DNA of 64,000 bases from a virus. Under the pieces are notes generated by a model. That model made no database searches and was not told where the DNA came from. It saw only the letters and a list, made by a program, of their open reading frames with translations. The DNA lies in the IMG/VR virus record IMGVR_UViG_3300034198_017889, positions 39,845-103,844 of that record; one strand, given 5' to 3'. The position numbers and the translations under genes were made by a program. This document shows, piece by piece, positions 11,701-58,772 of the stretch (position 1 is its first letter; the number at the start of each line of letters is the position of its first letter).

Positions 11701-14700
11701 TTACAGCTACCGGATTTTCTGAAAATACACTTACAATTGATGCGTCTTCAGGAGCTATTATAGGATCCACCAGAACCGCGACCACTAGCTCACCCATACC
11801 TATAACAATAACTGCTATTAACGCAGCTGGATCATCTGCACCTGTTATAGTTTACTTGGTCGTGAAATCCACAACCCAAATACTGAATATTAATGGAAGT
11901 AATGCCACGATCTGCCAACTATTAGATAACACAGATAATCCAACCGGACTAACTTTGACGGGCTTACCATCTTGGCTTACATTCAACTACCCAGCCGTTA
12001 ATAATTGCAATATATCTGGGACTATTCCCACCGGTCAGGTATCAACACAATCATTTACTACTCAGTTAACAAGAATTTATGGAACTGGGTCCACAGTCCA
12101 GAATTTATTAATTAGTATTACACAACCACCTGTAATTACTTCTCCAAATCAAAACAAATACGACATAGCTCCACCTGATTTTAATAGCAGAGTATACACA
12201 ACCAGTTCACCATTACTCACAGTTCAAACCACGAACTCACCCATTTCCTTCTCAGCTACAGGTCTCCCACCAGGATTAACCGTGGATTCTCTAGGCAGAG
12301 TAATTGGTGGACCTGTTACAGTGGTAGGTGATTATGCTGTGAGTATAGCAGCCACAAATTCAGTTGGTTCCTCCGCACTAGCTTATTGCACAATAGCTGT
12401 TACTAGTAACTTAAAAAACATAACATTAACTAAAGAAACTCCCGTCTGTGAGAAAATTAATACTGAAGATGCTGCAACAATATACTCCATTTCAGGTAAG
12501 TTACCATCAGGAATATCCTTTAATGGCTCCCCAAGTATTAACTGCAATTTCTCGGGGACTCCCCTGGTAAGTAATACCGTGGGTGCATATCCAATTCTTA
12601 TAACTAGTAAATATCTTGGAGGATCTAGCACTAGCACTACGAATTTAAACCTAATAGATGTACCTAAGATAACTTATCCTGTTAGTGCAACTACATTTAA
12701 AATATACCCACCAGACTTTACTACTTCAGGGGCGGACACAACCACATTCACAGATGTATCCCCGCTCCTGACTGTACTAGCCACAAACTCACCCATATCT
12801 TTTGCGGCCACCGGGCTTCCATCCGGTTTATCCATCACCAACCAGGGAAATATAGTTGGAAAAATTACAGAGAGCAGCGGAACATTCAATGTTTCAGTTG
12901 TTGCAACAAATTCTGTAGGAGCGTCAGCTTCATTAGTATTCAATCTGTCTCTCTCCAATGTTTCCCCAACTATAAACGCTTATCAGGGTAAGGATCTATG
13001 CTATAAGTTTCCAATTCTAAGTAATGCTACCTCGTACTCATTATCTGGTGATGTTCCACCCTGGATAACAATAAACCCGTCCACAAAGGCAACCTGCCAC
13101 ATCAGCGCCACAAGCCAAACCATATCAGCTAACAACGTTTATAACTTTGTGCTAAACGCTGTGATTTCTGGCGCGAACATAAAGCAAAACCAAACCCTTA
13201 ATTACACAGCAATACCACAGATATCCTCACCTTCTACTAATTCTACCGTTGGTGTGGTTGATTTAGTGACTTTTACAGAGAATTATCCAGCAATTGCTAT
13301 TACAGCTAATAATAACCCAACAACATACACATGTAACCCTAGTTTGCCGGCAGGCCTTAGTCTATCAACATCTGGAAAAGTTATAGGGAAAGTATCAGCC
13401 GCTGCAGGTAATTATTCAGTTACATTAAGCGCTACTAACTCAGCCGGCAGCAGTTCAGTTGTTGTTAATTTTGTTGTGTCACGAACCACCAACAATACTT
13501 TATCGTCAGTCGCAACCGAGAATAACCAATACTGTTACAAGATCTCAGGTCTGGGGTTAGCAACAAGCTACGGATATTCAGGCACATTACCACCATGGCT
13601 AACTTTTGATGGGGGTGTGAGCGCAACCTGTAATTTATATGGAACCGGAGAGGGAGCTACTAACGAAACATATAATCTAACATTAATAGGCTACTATGGA
13701 AATTCATCTGTGTCTGTTAACTTTAGTTTGCGCTACTCAGCTAAGCCAACCATAACATATCCGATTGCTGGGTCTATATTCACAATTACACCACCAGACT
13801 ACAACAGTAAGGTGTTTACTCTGGCGTCCCCACTTTTTAAAGCTGCGGCAAGTAATAATCCGACTTCATTTGAGGCCACCGGATTTAATGCGAATACACT
13901 TAGAATTGACTCAGCTTCAGGGGCAATCATAGGGTCTACCGGCCCATTGGTGATCAACACCCCAGTACCTATATCAATCACAGCGATTAATTCAGCTGGA
14001 CGCTCACAGCCTGTCACAGTTTATTTGCAGGTGAATTCCACAAGCCAAACAATAAACATTGATGGGAGTAGTAACTCTGTTTGTTCACTATTAAACTTAT
14101 CGGATAACCCCACGGGTTTAACCATCACAGGTTTACCCAGCTGGCTTTATCTCAATTACCCAGCTATTAATAATTGCACTATCTCTGGGACTATTCCTTC
14201 GTTAATAACCACCAATCAGACATTCACAACCCAACTCACTAGAAGTTATGGGGTTGGAGCAACACTACAAAAGATAACATTTAATGTGGTGAGACCGCCC
14301 GTGATCACTTCCCCAAATCAAAACAAATACGACATAGCTCCACCTGATTTTAATAGCAGAGTATACACAACCAGTTCACCATTACTCACAATTCAAACCA
14401 CGAACACACCCACAACCATAACCGCTACAGGTCTCCCACCAGGATTAACCGTGGATTCTCTAGGCAGAGTAATTGGTGGACCTGTTACGGTTACGGGTAC
14501 TTATAACCCAGAATTCACAGCACATAACTTCGCAGGATCTTCCACAGCTAGCTGTGAGATATTAGCCACCAATATTACGGAAGTAATCAGCGCCTTGGAG
14601 GGTGTGGCTTTGTGCAAATCAATAATAACCCGTGATGGTGCAACAAGTTATTCACTCTCAGGAGCTTTACCAACAGGCTTGGTATTTGACGGTTCACCGG

Positions 14701-17393
14701 CTGCCCCATGCTCCTTCTCAGGAACTCCCACAGGTGCCAGCAATACTGGAGTATTTCCTGTGGATATATTAAGTACATATATAGGAGGATCCAGCAAAAC
14801 CACAGTTAATTTTAATTTCGTGGCTGTTCCCAAAATAACCACAACAACCGCCACATATAGGATTTTACCAAGTACTTATATTTCAGGATCACCCTATACA
14901 GACAGTCAACCAATCATAAGTATATCATCTTTAAACGACCCAACCGCATTCTCCGCAACGGGGCTTCCACCAGGATTAACCGTCACATGTTACGGTAACA
15001 TAGTTGGGTCACTGTCCGCACAGTCTGTGGGGCTATACTCTGTATCGGTAACCGCAGCAAATAGTGCGGGAACTTCAAAAATTTATAAATTCAGTTTAGA
15101 CTTAACTAAGAAAAAATCAATTATATCTTGGTCTAATCCTCAACCGATGGTTTACGGTACGGCTCTCAGTGAAACCCAATTAAACGCCGAAGCCAAAGAC
15201 TCAGCAAATATCGCTATACCTGGGATATTCACATATTCACCTTCTGCAGGTCAGGTGCTCTCAGCTGGAACAAAAACGCTGTCTGTTACGTTCACACCAA
15301 ATAACTCCGTAGATATAGACATAGCCACAAAGTCAGTAAGTATAAATATCTCAAAGATAACTCCTACTATAACTTGGGCTAACCCAAACCCGATAGATTT
15401 CGGCACCTTACTCGGAGACACACAACTTAACGCCACGGTTGATGGTGCTGTGGTGGGTGGTCAAAATATTTCTATAGCCGGAAAAATGGTTTATTCACCT
15501 GCTCCGTTATCCACGCCAAACGCCGGAACGGACACCCTCACGGCCACCTTTACCCCTACTGACACACTCAACTATAGCACTGCAAGAAAGACTGTGACTA
15601 TATTAGTTGAGAAGATACATCCATATGTGAGTTGGCCAACACCCTCAACCATTATATACGGAACAGCCCTAACCAATAGTCAGTTAAATGCTAAAGCTTA
15701 TTTATCTGAGTCGAATACCGCAACAACAGTATCCGGCACTTTTACGTATAGTCCGATATTAGGTTCAGTTCTTGATGCACCAGCTCAAACCTTAACTACT
15801 ACTTTTATACCTACCACGCCAAGTAATTACCTCCCTGATCCTGTTGTCAAAACTGTGCAAATTACCATAGAGAAAGCTACTCCAACAATTGTTTGGCCTT
15901 CACCAGCTAGTCTAACATATGGAGAATTTCTAAGTTCAACCCAACTCAACGCCTCAGAGAAAAACTCAGTACCTGGAGTTTTCTCTTACTCTCCAGCCTC
16001 TGGGGTAAAACTTAACTCAGGATCATCCCAAACACTATCAACTACATTCACACCCACAGCCTCAAATAACTATAAAACAGTTAGTACTACCACAAAAATT
16101 ACTGTAAATAAAGCCACTCCAACCATAAACTGGGACACACCTTCTCCTATATCCTACGGAACACCACTTAGCACAACTCAGCTGAATGCATCAGTTCAGG
16201 AAGCTGTTCCTGGGGTGTTTGAATATTTGCCAGCTATAGGAACCGTGCTTGCGGGTGGGTCTAAATCATTACAAGTTACTTTCACCCCTGAAGATCTTTT
16301 AAATTACAATAAGGTGACTAGAACTGTCTCAATACTTGTAAATCCAGCTACCCCGGTGATCACGTGGCCCGCAATCACTAGTATAACGTATGGAACATTG
16401 ATTGGTGTTACCCAGTTAAACGCTGAAGCCAGAAACCCTAATGGAGATAACTCGATTGCCCCTGGAACTTTAACATACTCGGTGAGCTCTGGTACAAAAT
16501 TAAATGCGGACACATACAGCCTAACCGTCTCCTTCACACCATCAGATATAAAAAACTTCAACTCAGTCACAGGTACAAACACATTAATTGTTAATAAAGT
16601 GATTCCTAGATTATTGTGGGGTAGCCTTAAAGATATTACATATCCTAAGGTTTTAACAACAGAACTCAACGCCACCGCCGTTGAGGGTACCTCCACAACC
16701 GTATCAGGTACTTTTGAATATACTGATAGCGGAAATAATATTTTAACCACAGGATCGCTACTCAACGCCGGATATAACACAATAACAGCAAAATTCTCAC
16801 CCACCGATACAGTTAATTACGCAATACCAGCTAATATAACAAACACTCTCCAAGTACTCAGGGGCTTTCCTTATGTTACTTGGGAGACTAGGTCCCCCTC
16901 TACCTTACCGTACTCAAGTAAATACCTGGGACTGGACCATATCCTAGGAGCTTATACTGCATCCACAGGAGCCGTCGCTGTTCCTGGTGTTTTTTCAAAA
17001 TCCCCAGAATCACTCACAAAAAATACAACCAGCATAACTCCACCAAACAACACCCTGCAAATCTCAGGAGGTTTCACACCAACAGATACCGCAAATTGGT
17101 ACTCTGTGAGTAAAGCACAAACAATATATTCTAGTATATGTTCTCCCACAGTTACATGGAGTACACCGGCTCCATTAAGTTTAGGAGGCAACACATCAGT
17201 AACTCTCACAAGCGCACAATTAAATGCAGTTGTGACTGACTGTGGTGGCGACCCCGCCTTGGGTACGATTGTGTATACACCACCAATAGGTTCAACTATT
17301 TCCGAAACAACAGTTGTTTATATGGAATTCACATCATCCAACGATAAAATCCTGAATGCTGTGGTGTATCGTACTGTTGCGGTTACCTCTTGA
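5745..17393 (+). CDS. Giant Ig-repeat tail fibre/adhesin (3882 aa)
   Basis: Paralogous N-terminal module, then many NSPTSFSATGLPxGL...ATNxxG putative-Ig (He_PIG-like) repeats, then ~80-aa KATPTIxW..P..IxYGT.L...QLNA repeats. Confidence 0.8.
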   Translation: MPALEYLSGNSLISYPFKDGRAVNSYLPLGDDTFLDALFVISGEVGISRPYISHISTAQSVITFELSDVVGGLFGVVELPTSSAVNHLDSVGDNFFHVTNSTWSAKFVFGPGIFELHTPGINIQFTPDETEFSPSVVIHTVPMVTALNFESYHNDGTLAAQTPEAVHIYSPGEEAKMTNGSNNVFNFLSPETMYLDIQRGAGTGLHDPCASGNITDIYSINRITPDSQGSMFFSASDCYSMELLTYNDTQLYSFIPDIASRYGDFATPIPQIGNTPGYTQYFNAIAPEMGGHGLVMQNHCQPKCPPQNLNAFAEYLNRVTDGAAELYKFVSNSYETYGTGTLSGDIFTVEVFCGTTLPDNWVSGVCSGSFTKYFHEGKTLQIRYDSTTIKSYKILDVLSNSAVRLNLEATNPPTINVSGPAPFKILELGIKNKLNSAILTNNEKLLTKNVPSIDINYGTVEAYNAVKDYGTFITAIVVIYNPTPAPLNFSVSWDTNNITKVVPSSIKTKTSSGVISYGGTVGIINCKDYATFEAIFFIPCSTSENSPNEGSVTFNVLNTADNLDLENSPKSVMATAATCVSADQAIIYVKALEGAPFSYYLPVGPGVTSLSFSGNAPNWLTFDNSITPGAGNLHGTPTGSVSGSYTISAGINSAGGSTAQTIVLTYVAKPRIVYPEDSSTIQIYPPDTNSRTYTEGAPLTPIVATNSPSGYSIVGAPLGLRQVGNGLIGQITLGSNPTFPINYVLTMSASNEAGESLPVTVNLELTNVPISTPAATYGTQFCYSIISGPEVLSQSVITSLPNWLSFNPAVNLVSSTTPPVCSLSGMNTSYSGKPEIVIVRQNLKGGSYRLVQYIIPYSSIPNITYPTPGAIFNVYPPNFVNSGDGATVFTAAYPLLKVYSTNTTTSFNATGLPLGLSIDNSGNIVGKITSGAGIYSTTITATNSVGTSPPVTFSFDLLDQVPTINAYQGKAFCYKFPILNNASSFSISGDIPPWLTVSSSVNTSCHISSAKLSQPQSQSYNLLVSADINKANISQAQIINYVALPKISYPTSGQVINLTAADYQNILFTTDFPLATIIASNSPTSYSASGLPTGLSITPNGKIIGKTSATAGDYDVVLTATNGAGSESISVTFHISSSGIRDLAFPNMPYCYKIAGFGAVDRYEYSGTLPDWLTFDGSPTALCNLYGTGTGTTGEVYDLTLTGYNGTSSTSLPYTLSYAITPTITYPIAGSIFTITPPDYNSKVFTLNSPLFKVTATNNPTTFRATGFPSNTFSIDPATGSIIGSTRTVTTNTPTPITITAVNAAGTSESITVYLVVSSTSQTLGIDGSTGEVCSLLSLADNPTGLTLTGLPSWLTFSYPAVNNCNISGTIPTGQVSTQSFTAQLTRIYGTGSTVQNLLISITRPPVITSPDQNIYDIAPPDFNSRIYTTLLPLLTVQATNNPTSFSATGLPPGLTINSSGRVIGGPVTVVGDYAVSITATNSVGSSSTALCTISVTNSIKNITVARETAICEKIITADGATVYSTVGKLPSGISFNGSPNINCNFSGTPLVSNPVGVYPINITSKYLGGSSTSTTNLNLIAVPKITYPISSAIFKIYPPDFTAVSGDSTTFTAGYPLLTVLATNSPISFSATGLPSGLTIDNSGNIVGKITSGVGTFNVSVIATNSVGTSSALSFSLSLVNTVPIISAYQGKDLCYKFPILSNATAYSLSGDVPPWVTVNTSASAACHISATNPSLNASTTYELVLSTVIGGANIKQSQVIKYTASPKISSPQANLVVSVSDLITFTENYPAVAVFASNSPTLYSCTPGLPAGLSITKTGKVIGKVGATAGNHNVAISATNAAGSDSVVVTFNVVRSSNNTLSSAAIFGESYCFKIQGMGTATSYGYSGTLPEWLTFNSDVGATCNLYGTATGLTNEIYNITLIGYYGDSSVSYNFSLQYSAKPTITYPIAGSVFTITPPDYKSKTFTLTAPLFKAAATNNPTSFTATGFSENTLTIDASSGAIIGSTRTATTSSPIPITITAINAAGSSAPVIVYLVVKSTTQILNINGSNATICQLLDNTDNPTGLTLTGLPSWLTFNYPAVNNCNISGTIPTGQVSTQSFTTQLTRIYGTGSTVQNLLISITQPPVITSPNQNKYDIAPPDFNSRVYTTSSPLLTVQTTNSPISFSATGLPPGLTVDSLGRVIGGPVTVVGDYAVSIAATNSVGSSALAYCTIAVTSNLKNITLTKETPVCEKINTEDAATIYSISGKLPSGISFNGSPSINCNFSGTPLVSNTVGAYPILITSKYLGGSSTSTTNLNLIDVPKITYPVSATTFKIYPPDFTTSGADTTTFTDVSPLLTVLATNSPISFAATGLPSGLSITNQGNIVGKITESSGTFNVSVVATNSVGASASLVFNLSLSNVSPTINAYQGKDLCYKFPILSNATSYSLSGDVPPWITINPSTKATCHISATSQTISANNVYNFVLNAVISGANIKQNQTLNYTAIPQISSPSTNSTVGVVDLVTFTENYPAIAITANNNPTTYTCNPSLPAGLSLSTSGKVIGKVSAAAGNYSVTLSATNSAGSSSVVVNFVVSRTTNNTLSSVATENNQYCYKISGLGLATSYGYSGTLPPWLTFDGGVSATCNLYGTGEGATNETYNLTLIGYYGNSSVSVNFSLRYSAKPTITYPIAGSIFTITPPDYNSKVFTLASPLFKAAASNNPTSFEATGFNANTLRIDSASGAIIGSTGPLVINTPVPISITAINSAGRSQPVTVYLQVNSTSQTINIDGSSNSVCSLLNLSDNPTGLTITGLPSWLYLNYPAINNCTISGTIPSLITTNQTFTTQLTRSYGVGATLQKITFNVVRPPVITSPNQNKYDIAPPDFNSRVYTTSSPLLTIQTTNTPTTITATGLPPGLTVDSLGRVIGGPVTVTGTYNPEFTAHNFAGSSTASCEILATNITEVISALEGVALCKSIITRDGATSYSLSGALPTGLVFDGSPAAPCSFSGTPTGASNTGVFPVDILSTYIGGSSKTTVNFNFVAVPKITTTTATYRILPSTYISGSPYTDSQPIISISSLNDPTAFSATGLPPGLTVTCYGNIVGSLSAQSVGLYSVSVTAANSAGTSKIYKFSLDLTKKKSIISWSNPQPMVYGTALSETQLNAEAKDSANIAIPGIFTYSPSAGQVLSAGTKTLSVTFTPNNSVDIDIATKSVSINISKITPTITWANPNPIDFGTLLGDTQLNATVDGAVVGGQNISIAGKMVYSPAPLSTPNAGTDTLTATFTPTDTLNYSTARKTVTILVEKIHPYVSWPTPSTIIYGTALTNSQLNAKAYLSESNTATTVSGTFTYSPILGSVLDAPAQTLTTTFIPTTPSNYLPDPVVKTVQITIEKATPTIVWPSPASLTYGEFLSSTQLNASEKNSVPGVFSYSPASGVKLNSGSSQTLSTTFTPTASNNYKTVSTTTKITVNKATPTINWDTPSPISYGTPLSTTQLNASVQEAVPGVFEYLPAIGTVLAGGSKSLQVTFTPEDLLNYNKVTRTVSILVNPATPVITWPAITSITYGTLIGVTQLNAEARNPNGDNSIAPGTLTYSVSSGTKLNADTYSLTVSFTPSDIKNFNSVTGTNTLIVNKVIPRLLWGSLKDITYPKVLTTELNATAVEGTSTTVSGTFEYTDSGNNILTTGSLLNAGYNTITAKFSPTDTVNYAIPANITNTLQVLRGFPYVTWETRSPSTLPYSSKYLGLDHILGAYTASTGAVAVPGVFSKSPESLTKNTTSITPPNNTLQISGGFTPTDTANWYSVSKAQTIYSSICSPTVTWSTPAPLSLGGNTSVTLTSAQLNAVVTDCGGDPALGTIVYTPPIGSTISETTVVYMEFTSSNDKILNAVVYRTVAVTS
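8322..14826 (+). repeat. Three tandem ~2,169-bp (~723 aa) intragenic super-repeats
   Basis: Equivalent PxITYP/PKIT anchors at 8322, 10491, 12660 and 14826 (spacings 2169, 2169, 2166), with long identical DNA blocks between units. Confidence 0.9.
15107..17390 (+). repeat. About 8-9 ~80-aa Big/MBG-like repeats at the fibre C-terminus
   Basis: Recurrent (K)xTPxIxW...YGT.L...QLNA...GxFxYS...L.AG...L..TFTP.D..NY. Confidence 0.75.
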
Positions 17394-36024: not shown

Positions 36025-37590
36025 ATGGACTTTATAACTAAATTCAAAAACTACTATGCCAGTGGCTATCCCAGCCTATTCATAATGACTCATGAGGAAC
36101 AGCGTGTCGTTAAAGACATCTTGAACCTTGTAGAGAACAACGAGGGAGTTACCGTTAATGAGTGGGATACTCAGAATGGCCTGATCAGGTCAAAGGATAA
36201 GTCATCACATGGAGACACCCTAGGAAATAGCACAGAGCTTCTCAAGTATCTTCAAACATACCGAGAGGAGGGAAATATTTTCATCTTGAAAGATTTCCAC
36301 CTTCACTTCGACAAAGTGATTAACATACGTCTACTCCGTAACCTTTGGAATATTCTTAAGAGAAAGGGAAACATGATTGTGTTGGTTGGTCATAAGTTTG
36401 CAATTCCTCCTGAGATGGAGAAAGAGGTGCAGCTTATTGATTACGATCTCCCAGGTGCAGAAAGCATCCAGGAGAGACTAGACTATATCATGGGCTCTGC
36501 TAATAAGGTTCGTGAAGAGAAGAAGATGGAACCCCTTAAAATATCTCCAGAAACCCTTGAGGCTTCTGTTGAGGCCGCAAAGGGAATGACATACGGTGAG
36601 ATTGAGAATGCCTTTGCTATGGCTTTTACCACTAGTAAGCAGTTCGATCAGGCGTTCGTAGCCACTGTATTCGATGAGAAGATTCAGCAACTCAAGAAAA
36701 ACGGACTGCTAACCTACATCCCATCCGACATTTCTTTTGATAATGTTGGAGGACTAAATGGTTTGAAGCGTTGGATTCGTTCACGTAAGAAAGCATACGG
36801 TCAAGATGCGAGAGACTACAAGCTACCTCTCCCAAAGGGTATCTTGCTTGCCTCTGTACCTGGTGTTGGAAAGACCCTGGTGAGTAAGTCTATCGCTAAC
36901 GAGTTCGATTGCCCTTTGTTCCAGTTTGATATGGGTTCCATATTTGACTCACACGTCGGCAATAGTGAGCGTAACATGCGCGAGGCTATCAAGGTAATTG
37001 AGAGCATTGGAAAGTGCGTTATTCTTATAGATGAGATTGAGAAGAGTCTCAGTAAGGACGCAGTATCCGGTAAAGGAGACACAGGTGTTTCTTCTCGTAT
37101 ATTTGGTACATTCCTAGGCTGGCTCAATGATCGTACTAATCCTGCGTTCATTGTGGCAACATCGAACGATCACACAATACTTCCCACGCCTCTTATTCGT
37201 AAGGGTAGGTTTGACCAGTTATTCTGGATTGACCTTCCCTCTGATGATGAGCGTCGTGAGATCTTTAATGTGGTTCTTCGTAAGTATGGAAGAGATGCAG
37301 CAAATTTCAATATTAAGAAGTTTGTAACTGAATCAGATGAGCTCACAGGTGCGGAGATTGAGGATGTCATCAAGTCATCCTTGTTCCGTGCATTTGAGCA
37401 AGGTAGAGAGATATCTGATAAAGATGTCCTGGAAGAACTCACGGAGTTTATTCCTTTTGCGCATTCGCATGAGGAAGATCTCCAAACAATGCGTAAACAG
37501 GCCCGTGGAAAACTGGTCATGTTAGACGATAAAGGCGGAACACAAACAATAGAAAGCGCTATGCGTAAGCTTAGCATAGACTTAGCATAA
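36025..37590 (+). CDS. Ycf46-like AAA ATPase
   Basis: HEEQRV, LKDFH, VGGLxxLKxW, PKGILL, PGVGKT, LIDEIEK, RKGRFD. Confidence 0.88.
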   Translation: MDFITKFKNYYASGYPSLFIMTHEEQRVVKDILNLVENNEGVTVNEWDTQNGLIRSKDKSSHGDTLGNSTELLKYLQTYREEGNIFILKDFHLHFDKVINIRLLRNLWNILKRKGNMIVLVGHKFAIPPEMEKEVQLIDYDLPGAESIQERLDYIMGSANKVREEKKMEPLKISPETLEASVEAAKGMTYGEIENAFAMAFTTSKQFDQAFVATVFDEKIQQLKKNGLLTYIPSDISFDNVGGLNGLKRWIRSRKKAYGQDARDYKLPLPKGILLASVPGVGKTLVSKSIANEFDCPLFQFDMGSIFDSHVGNSERNMREAIKVIESIGKCVILIDEIEKSLSKDAVSGKGDTGVSSRIFGTFLGWLNDRTNPAFIVATSNDHTILPTPLIRKGRFDQLFWIDLPSDDERREIFNVVLRKYGRDAANFNIKKFVTESDELTGAEIEDVIKSSLFRAFEQGREISDKDVLEELTEFIPFAHSHEEDLQTMRKQARGKLVMLDDKGGTQTIESAMRKLSIDLA

Positions 37591-49856: not shown

Positions 49857-50076
49857 AGAAAAAAAACAACATATATTTGCATTAAATACGCATGATTTTG
49901 CTAAAACATCAGCTACTTACAGTGTGGAACTGGAGAGTCAGTGTACACTTGATGATTGCATAGAAGCGTTCAGTAACTTCCTAACATCAGTAGGTTACGT
50001 GTTCCCGACCGGAGCAACCCTTGGTTTTGAGTACGAGGAAGAGCTTGTAGAGACCACGGAGGATCCACATGAGTGA
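49846..50076 (+). CDS. Hypothetical protein
   Basis: LDDxIExFxxFLxxVGY motif common in phage small proteins. Confidence 0.65.
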   Translation: MNNKEKKQHIFALNTHDFAKTSATYSVELESQCTLDDCIEAFSNFLTSVGYVFPTGATLGFEYEEELVETTEDPHE

Positions 50077-52753
50077 AAATAAAGTAGAGGTAAAACCAAG
50101 AGGTGGTGTGGGAGCTAAATACATGATTGTGTTTAGCCACCCAACCAAGGATGACTTACAGGTAGCCCATTTCGGAAGAAGTGGTGGTTCTGCTATGGAG
50201 GTTATGGATGCCCTACATGCTGCCGGAATAGCTGAGGAAGAATGCTTCTTTACCGGCATGATCAGAAACGGAATAGGTAGCAAGTCAAAGCCAGGAGCAG
50301 AGGATATTGAATTCTGGGCAACCAAGCTTGATGAAGAGATTGAAGCTATCAAGCCTCAACTAATTATTAGCTTGGGTGCAGAGGTATTCAAGAGGTTGAT
50401 GAAAACCAACATGAAGGTAGGAGACTACCTTGGTGAGATCATCGACTCTCCGTATGGAAAACTACTAGCAAATTATTCTGCTGGTATGGTCACTGTGCAG
50501 GATCCCACAAAGCGTCCAGAGTTCCAGGACATATTCCATCTAGCCAAGAGAGCAGTTGATAATGACCTGAAATATGACAAGTTTATATACAGGATTGTTG
50601 ACGACCCAGAAGAGAACATAGCCATACTTAATAAATATATAGAGAAGGGCATGTTCTCGGTAGGGTATGACGCTGAGTGGTTTGGCTCTAAATTTACTGA
50701 TGACGAAGTTATGTATGAGTTTCAATATAGCTGCGAGAAGGATATCGCTATCATATTGAACATCTCAAAAGACGGAATCACAGAGAATAAGGAGCTATTA
50801 GACACAATGAAAATACTCCTGGAACATCCTAAAGCTGATCGTCTAGGTTGGAACATAAGAGCTGACGACCTGAGACTTACATACAGAGGTTTCAAATTAG
50901 AGGACTCTACACTAGGGTTTGATGGTATGAAGGCTGTTGCTTTCTTTGATTCCAGAATGAGTAAAGGACTGGATACAGGCATCAAGAAGTTTACAAACTA
51001 TGAGCCATATTACGTACCTTTCTACAGGAAACTAAAAGAGCACAAACTAGCCAAGAATGAACTAGCAAAACTCAAGTTCTTTGAACCTGAGGTATACTAC
51101 AATTATTGTGCTGGTGATGCCGTGAGTCATAGAGAGGCCTGCCTTAACATGCGTAGGGATTTCCCAAAAGATGTTTGGGGGTACTATAGTACAGTATATC
51201 TCCCTCTCACGAATTACTTCTTGGATATGGAGCTCACAGGCATACCTATCGACATGGATGTATTGAATGAGATCACTGAGAAATACATGAATAAGTATAA
51301 CGAACTCAGAGGCGAACTAACCCAGTTCATGGCTGAGAAGTTCGACATACAGGAGTTCAATCCAAATTCTTCTCTACAGAAGAAGGAATTCTTGTTCGAC
51401 GTACTAAATTTACCTCCAGCGTTCTATACAAAGGCAGGTAAATCTCCAAAGCCTAAGTCTTGGTATGATCGTCAAAAGCCTCAGACCCAGAAGTTATTCT
51501 CTCCTTCAACAAATGGTAAGTCACTTTCCACGATGAAGTTTGAGCTCGAAGAGGTTATGCAAAATCACGACAACGAAGATCTTAAAACAAAACATCGTGC
51601 GGTAGAGCTTCTTCTGAACATATCCAAGATTGGTGTGTTCGCTACAAAGTTCTTATCTAAGAAAGGTGTGGTATCAGATGAAATTGAGGTAGAGGAGGGT
51701 GAAGAGGAAGAGCCATTAAAGCAGAGTTATTGGGCAGCGATTGCGAAAGATGGAAGAGTTCATGCTAGCTTCTTTGAGCTACTTAAAAACTTCAGATCGT
51801 CCAGCTCACCTAATGTACAGAATCCTGCGTCAAAAGTGTTGGCACATATTCCTAATATCTTCGTTCCTGGGTATAACACCATGAGTAAAGATGATCAGGC
51901 GTTGCACAGTTCAAAGCTTCCGGCAAACATAAGAAACATCTTCTATGCAGGTGACCCTGATTACAACTGGGTAGAGCTTGATATTGCTGGTGCAGACTTG
52001 GCTATTATGGCGTTCCTTAGTGGAGATCCTCTCTTTATCAAAGATATTAGAGCAGGTAATTTCCATCAAACTAAGATGCGTGAATACTTCCAGGATCCTT
52101 CACTCACAAAGAAAGAAGTTTCAAAATATGTTATTGCTAAGAGTATTACATTCCGTGTTTCATACACTGCAGGTTTAGATCATGCGGCAGAACCAATCCA
52201 GGCTGAGATTTATGCTGAGAATGGATTGAGTGTTCCTATTAATCTAATCCAGTATGCGTTGAATACTTGGAAGCGATATGAAACATATATGGACTATAGG
52301 GCCCAGTGTAATGCTGAGGTAGAAGAGCATGAGAGAATATCTTGTGCTCGTGGAATGCGTTTGAGCTATGAGAAGACTGACAACTTTGGTATCAAGGCAG
52401 GCTGGTTAAACGAAAGTTTGGCTTTTCCTGTTGCTACAGAGTTGGCATGTATGATGTGGGAAGCATCTGTTAATGTTAGAAAGCTGCTCAAGTCAGAAGG
52501 ATTGTGGATGAAATATATTTACCCTGTAAATGTAGTCCATGATGCTAATTATTGGGTAGCCCACAAGGATCTCATGAAAGGAAACTACTTACCTGAGTTA
52601 CTAAGATATGTGTTTTGTAAGCAAACCACAATCGCCACAGGTGACAATCTAGGTTGTGAACTCGTGGTTAGTGACCGTTGGAAGGGTAAGAAAGTCTTTG
52701 AAAAGGAGACAGTATGGAATAACACCACTAATGAGTGGGAATGGGCTAAATAA
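50069..52753 (+). CDS. polA: Family A DNA polymerase with N-terminal UDG-like domain and 3'-5' exonuclease
   Basis: EIEAIKPQLIISLG (UDG-4 fold); YDAE/GWNIRADD/YCAGD exo motifs; ME.TG; FNPNS; PNVQN; LDIAGAD; AKSITF; VHD. Confidence 0.88.
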   Translation: MSENKVEVKPRGGVGAKYMIVFSHPTKDDLQVAHFGRSGGSAMEVMDALHAAGIAEEECFFTGMIRNGIGSKSKPGAEDIEFWATKLDEEIEAIKPQLIISLGAEVFKRLMKTNMKVGDYLGEIIDSPYGKLLANYSAGMVTVQDPTKRPEFQDIFHLAKRAVDNDLKYDKFIYRIVDDPEENIAILNKYIEKGMFSVGYDAEWFGSKFTDDEVMYEFQYSCEKDIAIILNISKDGITENKELLDTMKILLEHPKADRLGWNIRADDLRLTYRGFKLEDSTLGFDGMKAVAFFDSRMSKGLDTGIKKFTNYEPYYVPFYRKLKEHKLAKNELAKLKFFEPEVYYNYCAGDAVSHREACLNMRRDFPKDVWGYYSTVYLPLTNYFLDMELTGIPIDMDVLNEITEKYMNKYNELRGELTQFMAEKFDIQEFNPNSSLQKKEFLFDVLNLPPAFYTKAGKSPKPKSWYDRQKPQTQKLFSPSTNGKSLSTMKFELEEVMQNHDNEDLKTKHRAVELLLNISKIGVFATKFLSKKGVVSDEIEVEEGEEEEPLKQSYWAAIAKDGRVHASFFELLKNFRSSSSPNVQNPASKVLAHIPNIFVPGYNTMSKDDQALHSSKLPANIRNIFYAGDPDYNWVELDIAGADLAIMAFLSGDPLFIKDIRAGNFHQTKMREYFQDPSLTKKEVSKYVIAKSITFRVSYTAGLDHAAEPIQAEIYAENGLSVPINLIQYALNTWKRYETYMDYRAQCNAEVEEHERISCARGMRLSYEKTDNFGIKAGWLNESLAFPVATELACMMWEASVNVRKLLKSEGLWMKYIYPVNVVHDANYWVAHKDLMKGNYLPELLRYVFCKQTTIATGDNLGCELVVSDRWKGKKVFEKETVWNNTTNEWEWAK

Positions 52754-52755
52754 AA

Positions 52756-52962
52756 TTGAATACACAAAAGGTAACAAAACATACATCGTTAACCCTAGAC
52801 ACATGCCCTTGCTGCGGAAGCAACAATGTATGCGTCTGGGAGACTGAGAATGAGAGTCACACACACAAGGTCAAGGTTGCCACCTGCGAAAGCTGTAAAT
52901 TTGAAAGCTCAACCAGCCAAAAATTGAAAAGTGGCTACGCCGGACAATACAACTACCTATAA
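52756..52962 (+). CDS. Small Zn-ribbon protein
   Basis: CPCC...CESC; TTG start. Confidence 0.5.
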   Translation: MNTQKVTKHTSLTLDTCPCCGSNNVCVWETENESHTHKVKVATCESCKFESSTSQKLKSGYAGQYNYL

Positions 52963-53696
52963 TGCAGAATAGACTGATTAGTTTAAAATTATCAGAAAAT
53001 AGAAAAACTAGGTTCCATAAGGAGCACAAGAATACATTCGGACTAAAAACAGGTAAACCTGAAGATGGTGGAACCTGTCCAGGAGCAACAGAGGGTGATG
53101 GTGGATGCCTAGGTATCTGCTACGCCTGTACCACTAGCAGGATATACAAGAACTACAAGAAGGTGGAGGACTACAATACCGACATCCTAATGAGAGCTGA
53201 CTACGATCTGAAGGTGGAGGTGATTAGAAATACAGTTATGAAGTTTCTTCTTAATGGAGGAAACAAGAAACAGTATTTCCGGTTACACATGGGTGGTGAC
53301 TTCTTTAACGAGGAGTACACCAGAGCATGGGCATATGTAATGAAGGAGTGGCCTAGCGTTAAATTCTGGGGATATACCAGATCAATGTTTGCCCTACCTA
53401 TCCTTGCGGAGGTCAAAAACATGTCTGTTTACCTGAGCTGTGATCCAGTCAATAAGGAAGAAGTATTAGAAGCTTATGAGCCTTATAAGGATTATCCGAA
53501 TGTGGGTATAGCCTGGATGGGGAATAATTTCCCTGAAGAGCTTATATCAGACAGAGAATACCTAGCATGCCCAGCAGTAAAGGGTCAGGTTAAGAGTACA
53601 AAAGATTACGGAGCCTGCAGTCGTTGCAGGGCTTGCATTGACCGCCCTCTCAAGAGCGGAATGATGCGGCATATACAATTTCCTATCCACAGATAG
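52962..53696 (+). CDS. Gp88-like (radical-SAM-related) protein
   Basis: TCPGAT...C...CYA; FRLHMGGDF; FWGYTR; CP...CxxCxxC. Confidence 0.8.
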   Translation: MQNRLISLKLSENRKTRFHKEHKNTFGLKTGKPEDGGTCPGATEGDGGCLGICYACTTSRIYKNYKKVEDYNTDILMRADYDLKVEVIRNTVMKFLLNGGNKKQYFRLHMGGDFFNEEYTRAWAYVMKEWPSVKFWGYTRSMFALPILAEVKNMSVYLSCDPVNKEEVLEAYEPYKDYPNVGIAWMGNNFPEELISDREYLACPAVKGQVKSTKDYGACSRCRACIDRPLKSGMMRHIQFPIHR

Positions 53697-54303: not shown

Positions 54304-54567
54304 ATGGAAAAGAAATACACCATCAAGATCAGCGACAACACAGGCCACACCGAACTCATGGAGCAGTCCGTGGGTGAAGCAGTGAGCGCAATCACCGAGA
54401 AGGTGGCACAACACGCCCATTGGGTTTGGGTTGATGGCCAGCTCTTTGAGTTCGATAAGGGTGAGGCTACCTCCCCAGGTAACCAGCAGAAGCTACAGGC
54501 CCGCCTTGAGGCAGCTCAGGACCAGAACATCGTGCTTTCCGGTACGCTTGTTGGTGGTTCTAAATAA
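54304..54567 (+). CDS. Ubiquitin-like (beta-grasp) protein with capped di-Gly
   Basis: 87 aa; N-terminal beta-hairpin YTIKISDNTGHTEL, helix, WVWVDGQ (cf. VxVNG of ThiS/MoaD), C-terminal IVLSGTLVGG-SK; E1 and JAB genes nearby. Confidence 0.72.
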   Translation: MEKKYTIKISDNTGHTELMEQSVGEAVSAITEKVAQHAHWVWVDGQLFEFDKGEATSPGNQQKLQARLEAAQDQNIVLSGTLVGGSK

Positions 54568-54587
54568 GGTTTAAAAACCTACAAACT

Positions 54588-54617
54588 ATGGGGACGGAGT
54601 CCAATCCTCCTCCCCGT
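54588..54617 (+). promoter_or_regulatory. Hairpin after the Ubl gene (attenuator/stabiliser)
   Basis: ATGGGGA-CGGAG/CTCC-TCCCCGT. Confidence 0.45.
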
Positions 54618-54647
54618 AAAAACTACAAAATACAACCATACACATAC

Positions 54648-56714
54648 ATGGAAATCTCTGTTAAAAAATTCAAAACATTTGTTAATACATTTAATAAACT
54701 AAGTAAGTTCGTAAACCAAGGGACTGTTGATTTCCCCTCAGACTACTCAAAGGCTAGACATGACGGTAGTGATAACCCGTATGATAATGCTTTCTCGATG
54801 GTTATTAAAAATCTAAAGTTTAAGACTATTGCCGCAGCATTTAATTACACAAAAGTAGGTTCAATCACAGCAAATGGACTTGAAATAGCCCCACTACACA
54901 ACGACCGCAATAAAAGTGGTACTATAGGAAAGCGATTCTATGAATCTTGTACATACGGTAATGCAGGTAAGTTAGCAATAGCCAAACCGATTAATGAGGA
55001 TCCGGAGGTTATAGCTAAGAATTTTAAGAGCATGCGTTTTATCCCTAAGACAATTCCCAAGGATGTAAAGATGCCATATATTATTCAACACGCCCCATTC
55101 GAGGTAATGGAGGGAAATCATACATATAGAATCTTAAACACAGCCAAACACAATTCACATGTGCTAACAATTGGACGTGATGATGAGCCTATATATGACT
55201 ACCTGGATAAAGGATTCTTTATTCGTGGTGTTAAGGAGGTAACTCCTAGTGGAAAAGAAACACGGCACATGATGGTGACCAACGAACTTAATGTGCACTC
55301 TATGCATATCTTTGTGATGGTTACCATGCAGCCTAAGCTTTGCACTATGCTAAAGAATGGTTGCTTCGTTCATTCAGAAGATTCTCAGATGATGCGTCTC
55401 AAGATGGAGAAGAAACTACTTCCTAAACATAAGAAGAAGTATGATGAGGTACGTGCGTTTATCGAGAAAGACTACCAGAGCAATACATCCCTATTGGTGG
55501 TAAACAAAGTCAAAAATGGCGAAATTGAGAAAGCAGGTATCAATGATATCTCTATAGGCAAAGATTCAGCCCAATACGAGAACATCAGAGTAGAAGCACC
55601 AGACTTATTAGAAGTTCTCTATGACAAGCTGAACTTTGGTGGTGAGTTTGATATCTACTCTATTATTGAGACTTACACAGAAGCTTTCCAGAAGAAGGTA
55701 ACAGATTTATCTGTGGACGCTGGAACTTTCGAATTCCCTATAATCAAGATCAATGGTTTTGATATTGCGGTAACAAAGAACAGCTCTGGAGTACGCAAGG
55801 TTAACGGAAAGCGAATCAATAGCACGGAAATTAAAGATGTAATATATCGTGCAAGTTGCCATCATAATCTTGATGAATATAACTTATTCGTTCGCCGTAT
55901 CTCAAAGATGAGTCTACGTTGGCATGATGCTATTGCTAATGGTATACAAGTAAAGATCCACAGCAATATCACTCGCGAGGAATACAAGAGTGATACACCC
56001 AGCACTGATGCTCCAGCTATTAAGTTCTGGATCGACCCAGCTGCTAAGTGTATTAAGATACGCACAGAAGACACTGACGGAGGAAAGGTATCTCTAGGCA
56101 GACTTCTTGATAAGGTTGGGACCATCAACAAGAAAACCAATGAAGGCTGGTCTTATAAACTAGGAGAAACCCGTAATTATCGTTGGGCTCGTAAGGAGCT
56201 CGTCAGAGCAATTCGGGACTGCTGTACGTTCACAAAGACCACCACCAAGGAAGATGGTACAGCAGAAACCTCTACCTGGACCACCGTGACCAAGGAGGAC
56301 ATTGCTAAACTTATCGAGGTAGCTGATGAGGCTAAGAAGAAAGCCATTGAGAGAAGCAAAGCATTCCTGGATGGAGCAGTTAAGACCACAGGAGCAGAGT
56401 TAATTGAGTTCTTAGGTAAAAAGGCATACAAGGTGAAGGGTGGACTCAGGGAGTACGCCATCATTGTGGAGTCTGCTAAGGTATATGACTTCAACACCAA
56501 ACAATATCGTTGCATTGTTAACGATAACCACTTCCGTGGTGCTGGTTATGATGACATTGCTGCTCGCCTATATGTTCTCAAAAACGACTCTGTGATGCAG
56601 GACAAGATCGGTACACTCAAAGGTGCGGCACAGCCTCAGTATGAGAATCATCATAATGATTATCAGCCTGAACGCACCATCGAGGATATTATTGATCAGA
56701 TTGACCTAGCCTAA
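54648..56714 (+). CDS. Large uncharacterised protein (688 aa), candidate E2-like/substrate of the Ubl system
   Basis: Start after AC-rich leader; C-terminal VKGxLRxY...YRCIV...DDIAARLYVLKND. Role is inferred from position. Confidence 0.5.
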   Translation: MEISVKKFKTFVNTFNKLSKFVNQGTVDFPSDYSKARHDGSDNPYDNAFSMVIKNLKFKTIAAAFNYTKVGSITANGLEIAPLHNDRNKSGTIGKRFYESCTYGNAGKLAIAKPINEDPEVIAKNFKSMRFIPKTIPKDVKMPYIIQHAPFEVMEGNHTYRILNTAKHNSHVLTIGRDDEPIYDYLDKGFFIRGVKEVTPSGKETRHMMVTNELNVHSMHIFVMVTMQPKLCTMLKNGCFVHSEDSQMMRLKMEKKLLPKHKKKYDEVRAFIEKDYQSNTSLLVVNKVKNGEIEKAGINDISIGKDSAQYENIRVEAPDLLEVLYDKLNFGGEFDIYSIIETYTEAFQKKVTDLSVDAGTFEFPIIKINGFDIAVTKNSSGVRKVNGKRINSTEIKDVIYRASCHHNLDEYNLFVRRISKMSLRWHDAIANGIQVKIHSNITREEYKSDTPSTDAPAIKFWIDPAAKCIKIRTEDTDGGKVSLGRLLDKVGTINKKTNEGWSYKLGETRNYRWARKELVRAIRDCCTFTKTTTKEDGTAETSTWTTVTKEDIAKLIEVADEAKKKAIERSKAFLDGAVKTTGAELIEFLGKKAYKVKGGLREYAIIVESAKVYDFNTKQYRCIVNDNHFRGAGYDDIAARLYVLKNDSVMQDKIGTLKGAAQPQYENHHNDYQPERTIEDIIDQIDLA

Positions 56715-56804
56715 TAATTTAGTGGGGTACAACCTTTTGCGGTCGGATTGTATTAAACGAGGATGGCCTGTATAGTCACGCCCCACTAAACATTAATAAT
56801 AACG

Positions 56805-57059
56805 ATGAAAAAGCTAAATAAATCGAAACAAAAAAGCAAATCAACTAAACTTGGATTTAAAATAAACCCGCTGGAATCGGTGCATGTTAAGTTAGGCGGA
56901 TCTTGGTTAACCCCTTTTATAAGGGTGGGGACCACGGGTCAGGATGAAATATACAAGCTACTTAAAATTGCAAGAAGTGCCCCGAATGATCGCAAGGTAG
57001 CCCAAAGAAAACGCACAAACTTCGCAAATAGTGATTATTACGGAGCTTACGAAGAATAA
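56805..57059 (+). CDS. Hypothetical basic protein
   Basis: ORF 84 aa. Confidence 0.55.
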   Translation: MKKLNKSKQKSKSTKLGFKINPLESVHVKLGGSWLTPFIRVGTTGQDEIYKLLKIARSAPNDRKVAQRKRTNFANSDYYGAYEE

Positions 57060-57077
57060 ACAACCAACACACACAAT

Positions 57078-57704
57078 ATGAAAACATATATCATAGATAT
57101 TGAAACCGAGCCCCTCAGCCGTGAGGAGCTCAAAGCATTCGTACCTGAATTCAAGGCAGATAGTCGCCTAAAGGATCCGGTTAAAATCGCAGAAGACCTA
57201 CTCTCAAAAGAGTCAGCGTTCTATACCAAAGCAACCCTGAACGCATTAACTTCTAAGGTTTGTGCAATCGGTATCTGGGATGTGAGCCAGCCTGAACCTC
57301 AGCTTCTTTGCGGTGGAGATGAGGAGAAGCTAATCAACACCTTTGGAGATCTACTAAAGGATAAGAGCAAGTTCATCACCTTTAATGGTGCTGGGTTTGA
57401 TATTCCATTCCTGTGTCGCCGTGGTCTTAAGTACGGTAAGGACTTCTTCTCGAAGTTCTTTCGTATTGATGGCGGTTTAAGCTATGATGCTCCTCTTATT
57501 GATCTTGCAGCTATGTGGGATTGTCGTAGGAAGGACTATACTAGTCTTAACGAGCTTGCGCTCCACCTGGGTGTGGGAAGCAAGGAGAAGGGTGAAGAAC
57601 TCTTCTACCAGACATGGAATAGAGATCAGGCAGAAGCAAAAGCCTATCTACGTAATGACCTGGATCTCACAAAGAAGATTGCCAAGAAGTGGGGAATCAT
57701 TTAA
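57078..57704 (+). CDS. DEDDy 3'-5' exonuclease (PolB-exo2-like)
   Basis: DIET, TFNGAGFDIPFL, YLRND. Confidence 0.88.
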   Translation: MKTYIIDIETEPLSREELKAFVPEFKADSRLKDPVKIAEDLLSKESAFYTKATLNALTSKVCAIGIWDVSQPEPQLLCGGDEEKLINTFGDLLKDKSKFITFNGAGFDIPFLCRRGLKYGKDFFSKFFRIDGGLSYDAPLIDLAAMWDCRRKDYTSLNELALHLGVGSKEKGEELFYQTWNRDQAEAKAYLRNDLDLTKKIAKKWGII

Positions 57705-58183
57705 TGGCCATAACGTACGATACATCAAACAATATGGGCCTTATTAAACAGATAAATAAAAGACTATCCCGTGTTATCACAGGTGCTGCTATGGAGTGTC
57801 GTCGGAACACGGAAGAAGAAGGTGGAATAGTCCTGACTCGAAAGGGTCAGGACTTCATCTTTGTTAAAGTTAAAAATCTCCACGAGGGTGAGCCAACGGC
57901 ATATGGATTATATGTTGCTGATCCCGAGGAGTTTGGACAAAAAGTGATACCTATGATTGGTGCGGGTTGGGAAATGTATGCGAGTTTTCACACTCACCCA
58001 CAGTTCTCACCTCTACCTAGTCAGTTGGACTACGATAAGTTGTTCCAGGGTTTCAAGTATAACTACATCTTCTCTAACCGAGATCGTGAGTTTTCATGCT
58101 CTGAGTGGTCAGCACAAAAAGACCTTCACACATTCACAATTAAACTAGAATCATTAATATACCTAACTAACTACAATGACTAA
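57704..58183 (+). CDS. JAB/MPN+ (JAMM) metallo-isopeptidase
   Basis: EEGGIVL...FHTHP...PSQLD = E..HxH..PSxxD; start coupled to the exonuclease stop (TAATG). Confidence 0.9.
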   Translation: MAITYDTSNNMGLIKQINKRLSRVITGAAMECRRNTEEEGGIVLTRKGQDFIFVKVKNLHEGEPTAYGLYVADPEEFGQKVIPMIGAGWEMYASFHTHPQFSPLPSQLDYDKLFQGFKYNYIFSNRDREFSCSEWSAQKDLHTFTIKLESLIYLTNYND

Positions 58184-58772
58184 GCTAAAGAAAATCGGTA
58201 TCGCGGGTGCGGGTGGAATTGGATCTAATCTCCTAGCCATCCTTTTTGACTACGGGTTCAATCGTAAACAGTTCGACTATTCGAGCGTTGACGTTGATAT
58301 CTATGATGATGACGTTATCGACACTAGTAACTTACTCCATCAGAACTACAAGATTGATGATGTGGGTAAGCCTAAGGTTGAGGTTATGGAGGATCGCTAT
58401 GTTGTAAAGGGCATTAATAAGTTCATGGAGGAGAAAGACTTCAAGAAATATGATGTTATTTTCAGCTGTGTGGACAGTATGGAGTTTCGTAGAACACTAT
58501 ATAATTGGGGATTCAGTAACCCGGGAAAAGCATTCTGGATTGATGGACGTTGCACTAGCCGCCAAGGTGGTTTGTTCAATTCTGATCTTCCTGAGGATGA
58601 GCTTAAGAAGTACATCACGGATGATAACATTCGTGGTGGTTGCTTGCTAAAGTATGAGAAGGAACAAAACATCAGCCACACACTTCCAACGGTTGTTGCA
58701 GGTATGATGGTTCAGGTGTTCTTGAACTTCCTACGCGGAGAAAAAACAGACAAGAAACTATTCATGATCTAA
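58176..58772 (+). CDS. E1/ThiF-family adenylating enzyme
   Basis: GAGGIGS, YDDDVIDTSNLLHQ, DVGKPKV, CVD...R, WIDGR, candidate catalytic Cys in RGGCL; no CxxC pairs. Confidence 0.9.
   Translation: MTKLKKIGIAGAGGIGSNLLAILFDYGFNRKQFDYSSVDVDIYDDDVIDTSNLLHQNYKIDDVGKPKVEVMEDRYVVKGINKFMEEKDFKKYDVIFSCVDSMEFRRTLYNWGFSNPGKAFWIDGRCTSRQGGLFNSDLPEDELKKYITDDNIRGGCLLKYEKEQNISHTLPTVVAGMMVQVFLNFLRGEKTDKKLFMI

Follow-up and report, generated by a model that had tools for sequence, protein, structure and literature searches.

A co-inherited four-gene module in the replication region of uncultured phages encodes a candidate ubiquitin-like conjugation pathway

Whether a phage can own a pathway of ubiquitin-like protein conjugation is the question raised by a group of genes in the virus record IMGVR_UViG_3300034198_017889, a contig of 103,844 bp with a CheckV completeness of 53%, the last 64 kb of which were analysed as a whole (hereafter the window). 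Since related contigs of 165-190 kb are rated 85-97% complete, the genome of the phage is probably roughly 190 kb. An earlier note on this DNA had proposed that a small ubiquitin-like protein (Ubl), a JAMM/JAB metallopeptidase and an E1-like activating enzyme encoded in the window work together as one phage-encoded system. The features on which it relied in the three proteins were all recovered (Table 1), and the proposal is strongly supported by co-occurrence, by the C-terminal Gly-Gly (GG) of the Ubl, by the JAMM motif, by Cys156 of the E1 and by a beta-grasp model. That first account left out a fourth conserved component, a protein of 688 amino acids (aa) here called p688. The four genes lie in the order Ubl - p688 - JAB - E1, all on the plus strand, within positions 54304-58772, and we propose, at what we judge to be even chances, that they are a phage-owned, Bil-like cascade of Ubl, conjugating enzyme (E2), deubiquitinase (DUB) and E1, co-inherited and expressed together with genes of replication. 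What was observed directly is the four parts, the residues of their catalytic sites, and the fact that they are strictly co-inherited and occur in phages only. From these we infer the chemistry, the role of p688 as an E2 and the kind of target, including that the output would be conjugates of the Ubl with proteins, as opposed to a thiocarboxylate or a product assembled on the C-terminus, and that the role may be to tag replication proteins or to counter host Ubl defence.

The loci compared were 19 close IMG/VR loci, found with the E1, and 30 distant ones, found with sub-alignments of distant p688 members; together they represent 47 distinct contigs, 46 of which reach all four gene positions, and the window's own clade accounts for 17 distinct contigs. 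All four genes were scored in 45 of the 46, the one miss being the most diverged locus of the window clade, which was searched by tblastn only. Within this clade the Ubl goes down to 35% identity and p688 to 27%, and the order polA - GP88 - ... - Ubl - p688 - (exonuclease) - JAB - E1 is kept. The exonuclease gene had no tblastn match in 7 of the 17 distinct window-clade contigs and an adjoining 84-aa open reading frame (ORF) had none in 13 of them; being so often absent, neither is regarded as core. In the distant clades p688 is only 17-30% identical, and hidden Markov models of the window-clade proteins located Ubl, JAB and E1 genes beside the p688 homologue in 30 of 30 loci, there in the order p688 - Ubl - (0-1 gene) - JAB - E1, i.e., with Ubl and p688 swapped. 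The Ubl and p688 genes are adjacent in every locus. Since the set survives both twilight-zone divergence and rearrangement, we take this as strong evidence that the four genes share one function, and their recurrence with an invariant GG, JAMM motif and E1 cysteine is far beyond chance. Thus, the joint occurrence of Ubl, E1 and JAB, on which the earlier note had let its proposal depend, holds across close and distant loci alike.

The module is located inside the replication region. Its 5' neighbours in the window are a family-A polymerase with an N-terminal domain resembling uracil-DNA glycosylase and a GP88-family protein, with a DnaB-like helicase gene a few kb upstream and further conserved proteins downstream. 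In the distant clades it is flanked on one side by a class II ribonucleotide reductase and on the other by a family-A polymerase (PolA), and the tie of the module to replication and nucleotide metabolism is therefore general.

With the region, its Ubl and E1, p688 and one distant p688 as queries, blastn and tblastn gave no relative among GenBank phages, and two pattern scans of 185,579 bacterial and archaeal species, each represented by one genome, detected no p688-family relative. When a profile of the p688 C-terminal domain was compared with 1.84 billion cluster representatives, 412 proteins were returned at E <= 1e-3 (171 at <= 1e-10), every one of them of viral or metagenomic origin. By these searches the family seems to be confined to uncultured phages. 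Its members are nearly all 600-790 aa long with the domain at the extreme C-terminus, and matches of 87-160 aa could be either stand-alone E2-sized proteins or truncated gene calls. All that came up were remote ThiF genes of cultured jumbo phages, namely Bacillus Edson and WH1 and Acinetobacter ME3, with no recognisable JAB, E2 or Ubl in their neighbourhoods. In ME3 (vB_AbaM_ME3, KU935715.1, 132432-140833) a longer ThiF-family gene is found near a 'PRTRC system protein A' and then a 72-aa ORF, and in Bacillus phage vB_BceM_WH1 a longer ThiF-family gene is followed by a NADAR-family gene; both may belong to separate phage E1-like systems.

The Ubl ORF ends in IVLSGTLVGGSK. As the proposal of the earlier note required, the protein models as a beta-grasp: the AlphaFold2 model (16 sequences; predicted local distance difference test, pLDDT, 77) has the order beta-beta-alpha-beta-beta-alpha-beta, with a disordered tail from residue 81. 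Its Foldseek neighbours are almost only SUMO, ubiquitin, FAT10, NEDD8, PB1 and UBX chains, all at E >= 0.016, so that the predicted fold is supported by topology and by the identity of the neighbours, not by a strong score. Neither ThiS nor MoaD was among the top Foldseek rows, and no member of the family matched Pfam, ThiS and MoaD included, even at E <= 10, which makes the Ubl a new family by sequence. The GG, whose conservation was central to the earlier note, is invariant in 34 distinct homologues that are 19-75% identical. What follows it varies: 17 of these sequences have no tail, three have one residue, six have two, two have three, two have four, and tails of 5, 8, 9 and 75 residues occur once each. 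All window-clade Ubls keep the motif L[ST]Gx[LV]xGG ahead of 0-9 unrelated residues (two stop exactly at GG), and the majority of those in the distant clades terminate exactly at LTNALVGG, two carrying one extra residue. The homologue with the 75-residue extension (L049:6442-6927) would need proteolytic release, and in this would resemble a ubiquitin-fusion precursor. Because there is no Lys or Arg across the 17 residues upstream of GG (the predicted tryptic remnant, after Arg, is the 17-residue LEAAQDQNIVLSGTLVGG), standard trypsin-based K-GG proteomics is unsuited to this Ubl.

The JAB protein, with the motif E...HTHPQFSPLPSQLD, matches its Pfam family above the cut-off. Its catalytic residues are Glu38, His96-x-His98-Pro99, Pro105-Ser106 and Asp109; E38, H96, H98, S106 and D109 do not vary among 32 sequences drawn from the different clades, and they make up the catalytic Glu and H-x-H-x(7)-S-x-x-D zinc site of the JAMM/MPN+ type. 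A JAB with an intact active site is retained also beside Ubls that have nothing after GG (17 of 34), and it must therefore do more than trim a precursor. The E1 has the Rossmann fold, GxGxxG loop, Mg-ATP Asp and ThiF domain of the E1-like/ThiF-MoeB enzymes (68.9 bits against a cut-off of 28.1 bits), and in an alignment of 31 sequences the GAGGIGS (GxGGxGS) loop, D44xD46, K67 and the Mg-binding Asp100 are invariant. A residue check agreed with the claim that this E1 lacks CxxC pairs and has a Cys in RGGCL: there is neither a CxxC zinc site nor a rhodanese domain in the sequence, and Cys156 (codon 58641-58643) is the sole invariant cysteine. It sits 56 residues past Asp100, which is the spacing of the ThiF/MoeB crossover-loop cysteine. 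The best PDB match was the NEDD8 E1 UBA3 (E 0.008), and the best named relatives were PRTRC ThiF (TIGR03736, 3.7e-13) and short ThiF, both far below their cut-offs. In one relative (L017:8682-10453) the E1 gene is split after DIYDDDTV and its coding resumes 1.17 kb on in a different frame. A protein with two LAGLIDADG-like motifs (GFVYADGC, GYVDGDGS) is encoded in between, and the insert looks like a homing-endonuclease intron at the most conserved E1 site. Such introns at the most conserved sites are typical of essential phage genes.

The fourth component belongs to no known family. No match to p688 was found in Pfam, PHROGs, NCBIfam, PADLOC or PDB sequence profiles; Foldseek searches of PDB and the ESM Atlas gave no relative, and a BFVD search returned three unnamed viral proteins. 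Its AlphaFold2 model has several domains (pLDDT 84), and the C-terminal one is modelled as a long helix, a meander of four short strands, a loop with Cys622 and then helices. Cys622 (codon 56511-56513, motif YRCIVN) follows the last strand of the meander by about 8 residues. E2 enzymes carry their catalytic cysteine at the equivalent place, shortly after the meander. Among the fold-neighbour rows obtained with the whole-protein model, 13 of 50 are UBC, UEV or RWD chains, with scores that are individually weak; the enrichment of one superfold is nonetheless striking, and the modelled secondary structure agrees with the domain being a candidate UBC/E2-like fold. A weak match to DUF7737 (PF24879) covers the Cys622 region and the meander of strands in 16 of 17 C-terminal domains, with a best E of 2.5e-4 that is below cut-off; in control genomes four matched it (Deinococcus, Bacteroides, Thermotoga and Haloferax), two of them above cut-off, and no mention of DUF7737 was found in the literature searched. 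Against Prok-E2_D, the reference profile of which has only 3 sequences, hhalign gave 2.5%. A complex prediction of E1, Ubl(1-85) and the p688 C-terminal domain scored 0.48/0.53/0.00, and a control with a replaced E1 scored 0.71, so that it counts neither for nor against binding.

Conservation within p688 bears on how it might work. Among 110 members with identities as low as 16%, the only invariant residues are R161, D187, C404, G432, Y603, C622 and D647, the most conserved part being the compact C-terminal domain centred on the invariant cysteine. It was considered that no E2 takes part, and that p688 is a dedicated substrate or regulator, such as a replication factor, modified directly from E1~Ubl or Ubl-AMP in the manner of archaeal SAMPylation or Urm1. 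The constant adjacency of the Ubl and p688 genes would suit such a pairing, as would the weakness of the fold evidence for an E2, and conjugation without an E2 is known for SAMP/UbaA and Urm1/Uba4 (PMC9574740, PMC4443979). A substrate would be expected to show its conservation in a lysine-bearing loop rather than in a cysteine-centred domain, and no invariant lysine exists among the 110 sequences; we therefore hold this explanation to be improbable. Two conserved cysteines and no conserved lysine suggest a catalytic or relay role rather than that of a passive substrate.

In the conjugation cascade that we favour, the JAB peptidase would strip the residues that follow GG (here Ser-Lys), and the minimal E1 would bind ATP, adenylate Gly85 and load the Ubl on Cys156, its sole conserved cysteine. 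The Ubl would then be handed to Cys622 in the E2-like C-terminal domain of p688, the large and variable N-terminal part of which, with its invariant Cys404, may pick the substrate or serve as a built-in E3 (ligase). Attachment would be to lysines of phage or host proteins, and the JAB might also undo the modification. A more ambitious version holds that the cascade is complete (E1, E2 and possibly E3, Ubl and DUB) and exclusive to viruses, the 600-790-aa partner being a new conjugating enzyme with two relay cysteines (Cys622 E2-like, Cys404 E3-like) that tags host or phage proteins in the genome replication of large phages; this we advance tentatively, as somewhat short of an even chance.

Several points weigh against conjugation. 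No sequence profile confirms the assignment of p688 as an E2, no target is known for the Ubl, and the nearest named relatives of the E1, below cut-offs as they are, are ThiF-type sulfur-carrier adenylyltransferases and PRTRC ThiF. Trios of E1, JAB and Ubl that have no recognisable E2 serve sulfur transfer, as in CysO/Mec+/MoeZ and QbsE/QbsD/QbsC, and in such pathways the JAB trims the carrier or frees the product built on it. The module might thus be a sulfur-carrier or biosynthetic-scaffold system, in which the E1 would adenylate the Ubl, and the Ubl would either be turned into a thiocarboxylate with persulfide donors of the host or carry a product assembled on its C-terminal end, as happens when cysteine is made on CysO. 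Here p688 would be a sulfur-relay or synthase enzyme, the JAB would trim the precursor or free the product, and the product would go to modification of nucleotides, DNA or tRNA, which would fit a place between ribonucleotide reductase and DNA polymerase. The small E1 without a separate catalytic-cysteine domain, the lack of a recognisable canonical E2, and the constant placement beside nucleotide-metabolism and replication genes (class II reductase and PolA in the distant clades, PolA in the window) agree with it; so do the two invariant cysteines of p688, which could make a persulfide relay, and the existence of JAB-dependent ThiS/MoaD-like systems (PMC1779556).

The genomes themselves speak for the other side. 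As the earlier note had reported for the window, no rhodanese gene was found in the 104-kb record, nor was a class-V aminotransferase gene. Extended to 11 records (its own and 10 related near-complete genomes), the search gave rhodanese in none and a borderline class-V aminotransferase match (Aminotran_5), away from the module, in 2, with none in the other 9; the PP-loop ATPase (ATP_bind_3) was found in 0 of 5 genomes. Accordingly the genetic unit of the module holds no rhodanese, desulfurase or PP-loop partner, ThiG and MoaE not having been searched for. Host cysteine desulfurases could nevertheless feed a sulfur relay, so that absence from phage genomes is not decisive. An E1 with no CxxC zinc site and no rhodanese fusion, a Ubl with neighbours of the ubiquitin, SUMO and PB1 kind and with no ThiS/MoaD signal, and a p688 matching no known sulfurtransferase or synthase family likewise argue against sulfur chemistry, and we regard a carrier or scaffold as rather unlikely, though it is the main rival. 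The conjugation cascade is favoured because sulfur genes and an E1 CxxC are lacking, the fold neighbours are of ubiquitin type, the JAB persists where tails do not, the partner is E2-like and the gene order is that of Bil.

The Bil system consists of BilA (Ubl), BilB (E2), BilC (JAB DUB) and BilD (E1) and provides an ISG15-like anti-phage defence to bacteria; the C-terminal Gly of BilA is obligatory and some BilA homologues have overhangs of 2-9 aa (10.1101/2023.09.04.556158). The phage module has the same four-part order (Ubl, candidate E2, JAB, E1), a C-terminal Gly with short variable overhangs in some homologues, a JAMM DUB and an E1 of ThiF fold. Unlike BilABCD it occurs on phage contigs only, with no relative in the bacterial and archaeal species genomes scanned; its Ubl is a single domain of 85 aa and not a double one, its E1 has only 198 aa, its E2 candidate forms the end of the 688-aa p688, which has no known family, and it sits in a replication module with no significant sequence match to defence models. 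By analogy, then, the module would be most Bil-like in its working, yet it is no member of Bil by sequence, host or context.

Other known systems share fewer of its parts. The PRTRC cassette of plasmids and integrative and conjugative elements (ParB, ThiF-family E1, Prok_Ub, Prok-E2_D) is likewise carried by mobile elements and has small Ubl and E2-like proteins, and among named families none is closer to the phage E1 than its short ThiF-type E1, so that the E1 lineage is loosely shared. The phage E1 reaches 49.4 bits with TIGR03736 against a cut-off of 144.75 bits, though, its Ubl has no Prok_Ub match, none of the phage proteins compared passes a PRTRC family threshold, and the phage set includes a JAB and has no ParB, for which no search was made. 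On the Vibrio alfacsensis plasmid pSEA2 (NZ_AP019851.1, 248551-262883) the PRTRC cassette, with Prok_Ub, ThiF and two Prok-E2_D paralogues, lies next to replication or partition genes (DnaN, ParA) and is followed by a DnaN-like sliding-clamp gene, and this arrangement is another mobile-element Ubl system linked to replication functions. The carriers ThiS, MoaD, CysO and QbsE with their ThiF/MoeB-type E1s, some with a JAB (Mec+, QbsD), have in common with the module a beta-grasp protein ending in GG, an E1 of ThiF fold and a JAB that removes the residues past GG. They differ from it in that the phage E1 lacks CxxC, an extra obligate partner of 600-790 aa is present, the JAB is kept where the Ubl tail is absent, and no sulfur partner genes were found in the phage genomes. 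Finally, the tail-assembly genes of lambda and T1 encode a Ubl (TAPI) and a JAB-NlpC/P60 protein (TAPK) without an E1 (PMC1779556). This is the sole other phage pairing of Ubl and JAB found in the literature searched, and it belongs to a tail module with the Ubl fused to another domain, whereas the set described here includes an E1 and is placed among replication genes. No description of a phage-encoded Ubl-E1-JAB module was found in that literature, the coverage of which was incomplete.

Like a tagging role, a role against host immunity was proposed in the earlier note. The module would then mainly neutralise host Ubl immunity (Bil, CBASS Cap2/Cap3, Bub), with the JAB stripping host conjugates and the Ubl and E1 acting as decoys or competitors. 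Bacterial Ubl systems do act on phages (10.1101/2023.09.04.556158; PMC10097602), and the JAB and E1 match the PADLOC JAB and Cap2-type E1-E2 models. Those matches are marginal (E 5e-5 to 1e-2), and the PADLOC defence-system models gave nothing for the Ubl or p688. For stripping alone a DUB would suffice, yet all four genes are strictly co-inherited in very distant clades; moreover, a location in the replication core and what looks like a homing-endonuclease intron in one relative are the pattern of a housekeeping gene and not of an accessory anti-defence island. Counter-defence as the main task therefore has a low probability in our estimation, and it could be compatible with a conjugation mechanism.

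The layout of the locus is given in Table 1. The ATG at 54648 is most likely the start of p688, since in homologues the frame is closed by a stop ahead of the corresponding Met. Between the Ubl and p688 genes lies a GC-rich stem-loop with no U-tract, and none of 200 shuffles folded as well as it did; it is possible that it is an attenuator or mRNA-stability element setting the ratio of Ubl to enzymes. For the JAB the likeliest start is ATG 57704, which shares the sequence TAATG with the stop of the exonuclease gene, rather than GTG 57689. The 8-nt overlap reported between JAB and E1 (58183 and 58176) was borne out, and with the TAATG overlap it indicates that exonuclease, JAB and E1 are translationally coupled.

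Table 1. Features of the locus, in window positions
Feature	Position	Strand	Remarks
Ubl precursor, 87 aa	54304..54567	+	Body 1-83 beta-grasp (predicted), conjugation-type Gly84-Gly85, tail Ser-Lys
RNA stem-loop between Ubl and p688 genes	54587..54618	+	Minimum free energy -20.5 kcal/mol, z -4.3
p688 (p708/p688), fourth conserved component, 688 aa	54648..56714	+	ORF open from 54588
p688 C-terminal domain, residues ~545-688, candidate UBC/E2-like	56280..56714	+	Predicted structure
84-aa protein of no known family, non-core insert	56805..57059	+	ORF
3'-5' exonuclease, RNase H-fold, 208 aa, non-core insert	57078..57704	+	Pfam RNase_H_2 + DNA_pol_B_exo
JAMM/JAB metallopeptidase, 159 aa	57704..58183	+	PF14464 at 1.2e-9
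Minimal E1-like adenylating enzyme, 198 aa	58176..58772	+	PF00899 (ThiF) at 4.6e-19

Elsewhere in the window, the family-A DNA polymerase (50069-52753) is a fusion with an N-terminal domain of the uracil-DNA-glycosylase superfamily (PF00476 + PF03167). Directly after it, and kept in the window's clade, comes the GP88-family protein (52962-53696; PF17338, 4.7e-29), which holds CLGICYAC, a CxxxCxxC pattern resembling the radical-SAM cluster motif. A Ycf46-type AAA ATPase (36025-37590; phrog_8638, 3e-123) is present in the window's clade, in one genome of which it seems split or interrupted by TAA; considered as a possible reader of the tag, it was rejected as an obligate partner, since four genomes of the distant clades have the Ubl module and lack it. 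Positions 5745-17393 are one ORF of 3,882 aa, the size of a giant virion protein (e.g., an N4-like virion RNA polymerase or a tail/injection protein).

In bacteria, the Ubl conjugation described to date is a means by which hosts defend themselves against phages (Bil, CBASS Cap2/Cap3 and Bub). What is new here is an activating and deconjugating set, with an obligate p688 partner family, that is encoded by viruses in deeply diverged clades and was not found in cellular genomes. Should the set be a sulfur or biosynthetic carrier, it would point to a new metabolite made by the phage or to a new modification of nucleic acids. If its products are protein conjugates, phages would share the chemistry of the defences of their hosts, possibly rewiring the host or controlling their own replisome, and a minimal E1 of 198 aa, a Ubl of 85 aa and a new E2-like fold would become available for the study of how ubiquitin signalling evolved. 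And if the cascade is indeed exclusive to viruses, ubiquitin-style conjugation would be an offensive or housekeeping tool of phages and not only a bacterial defence.

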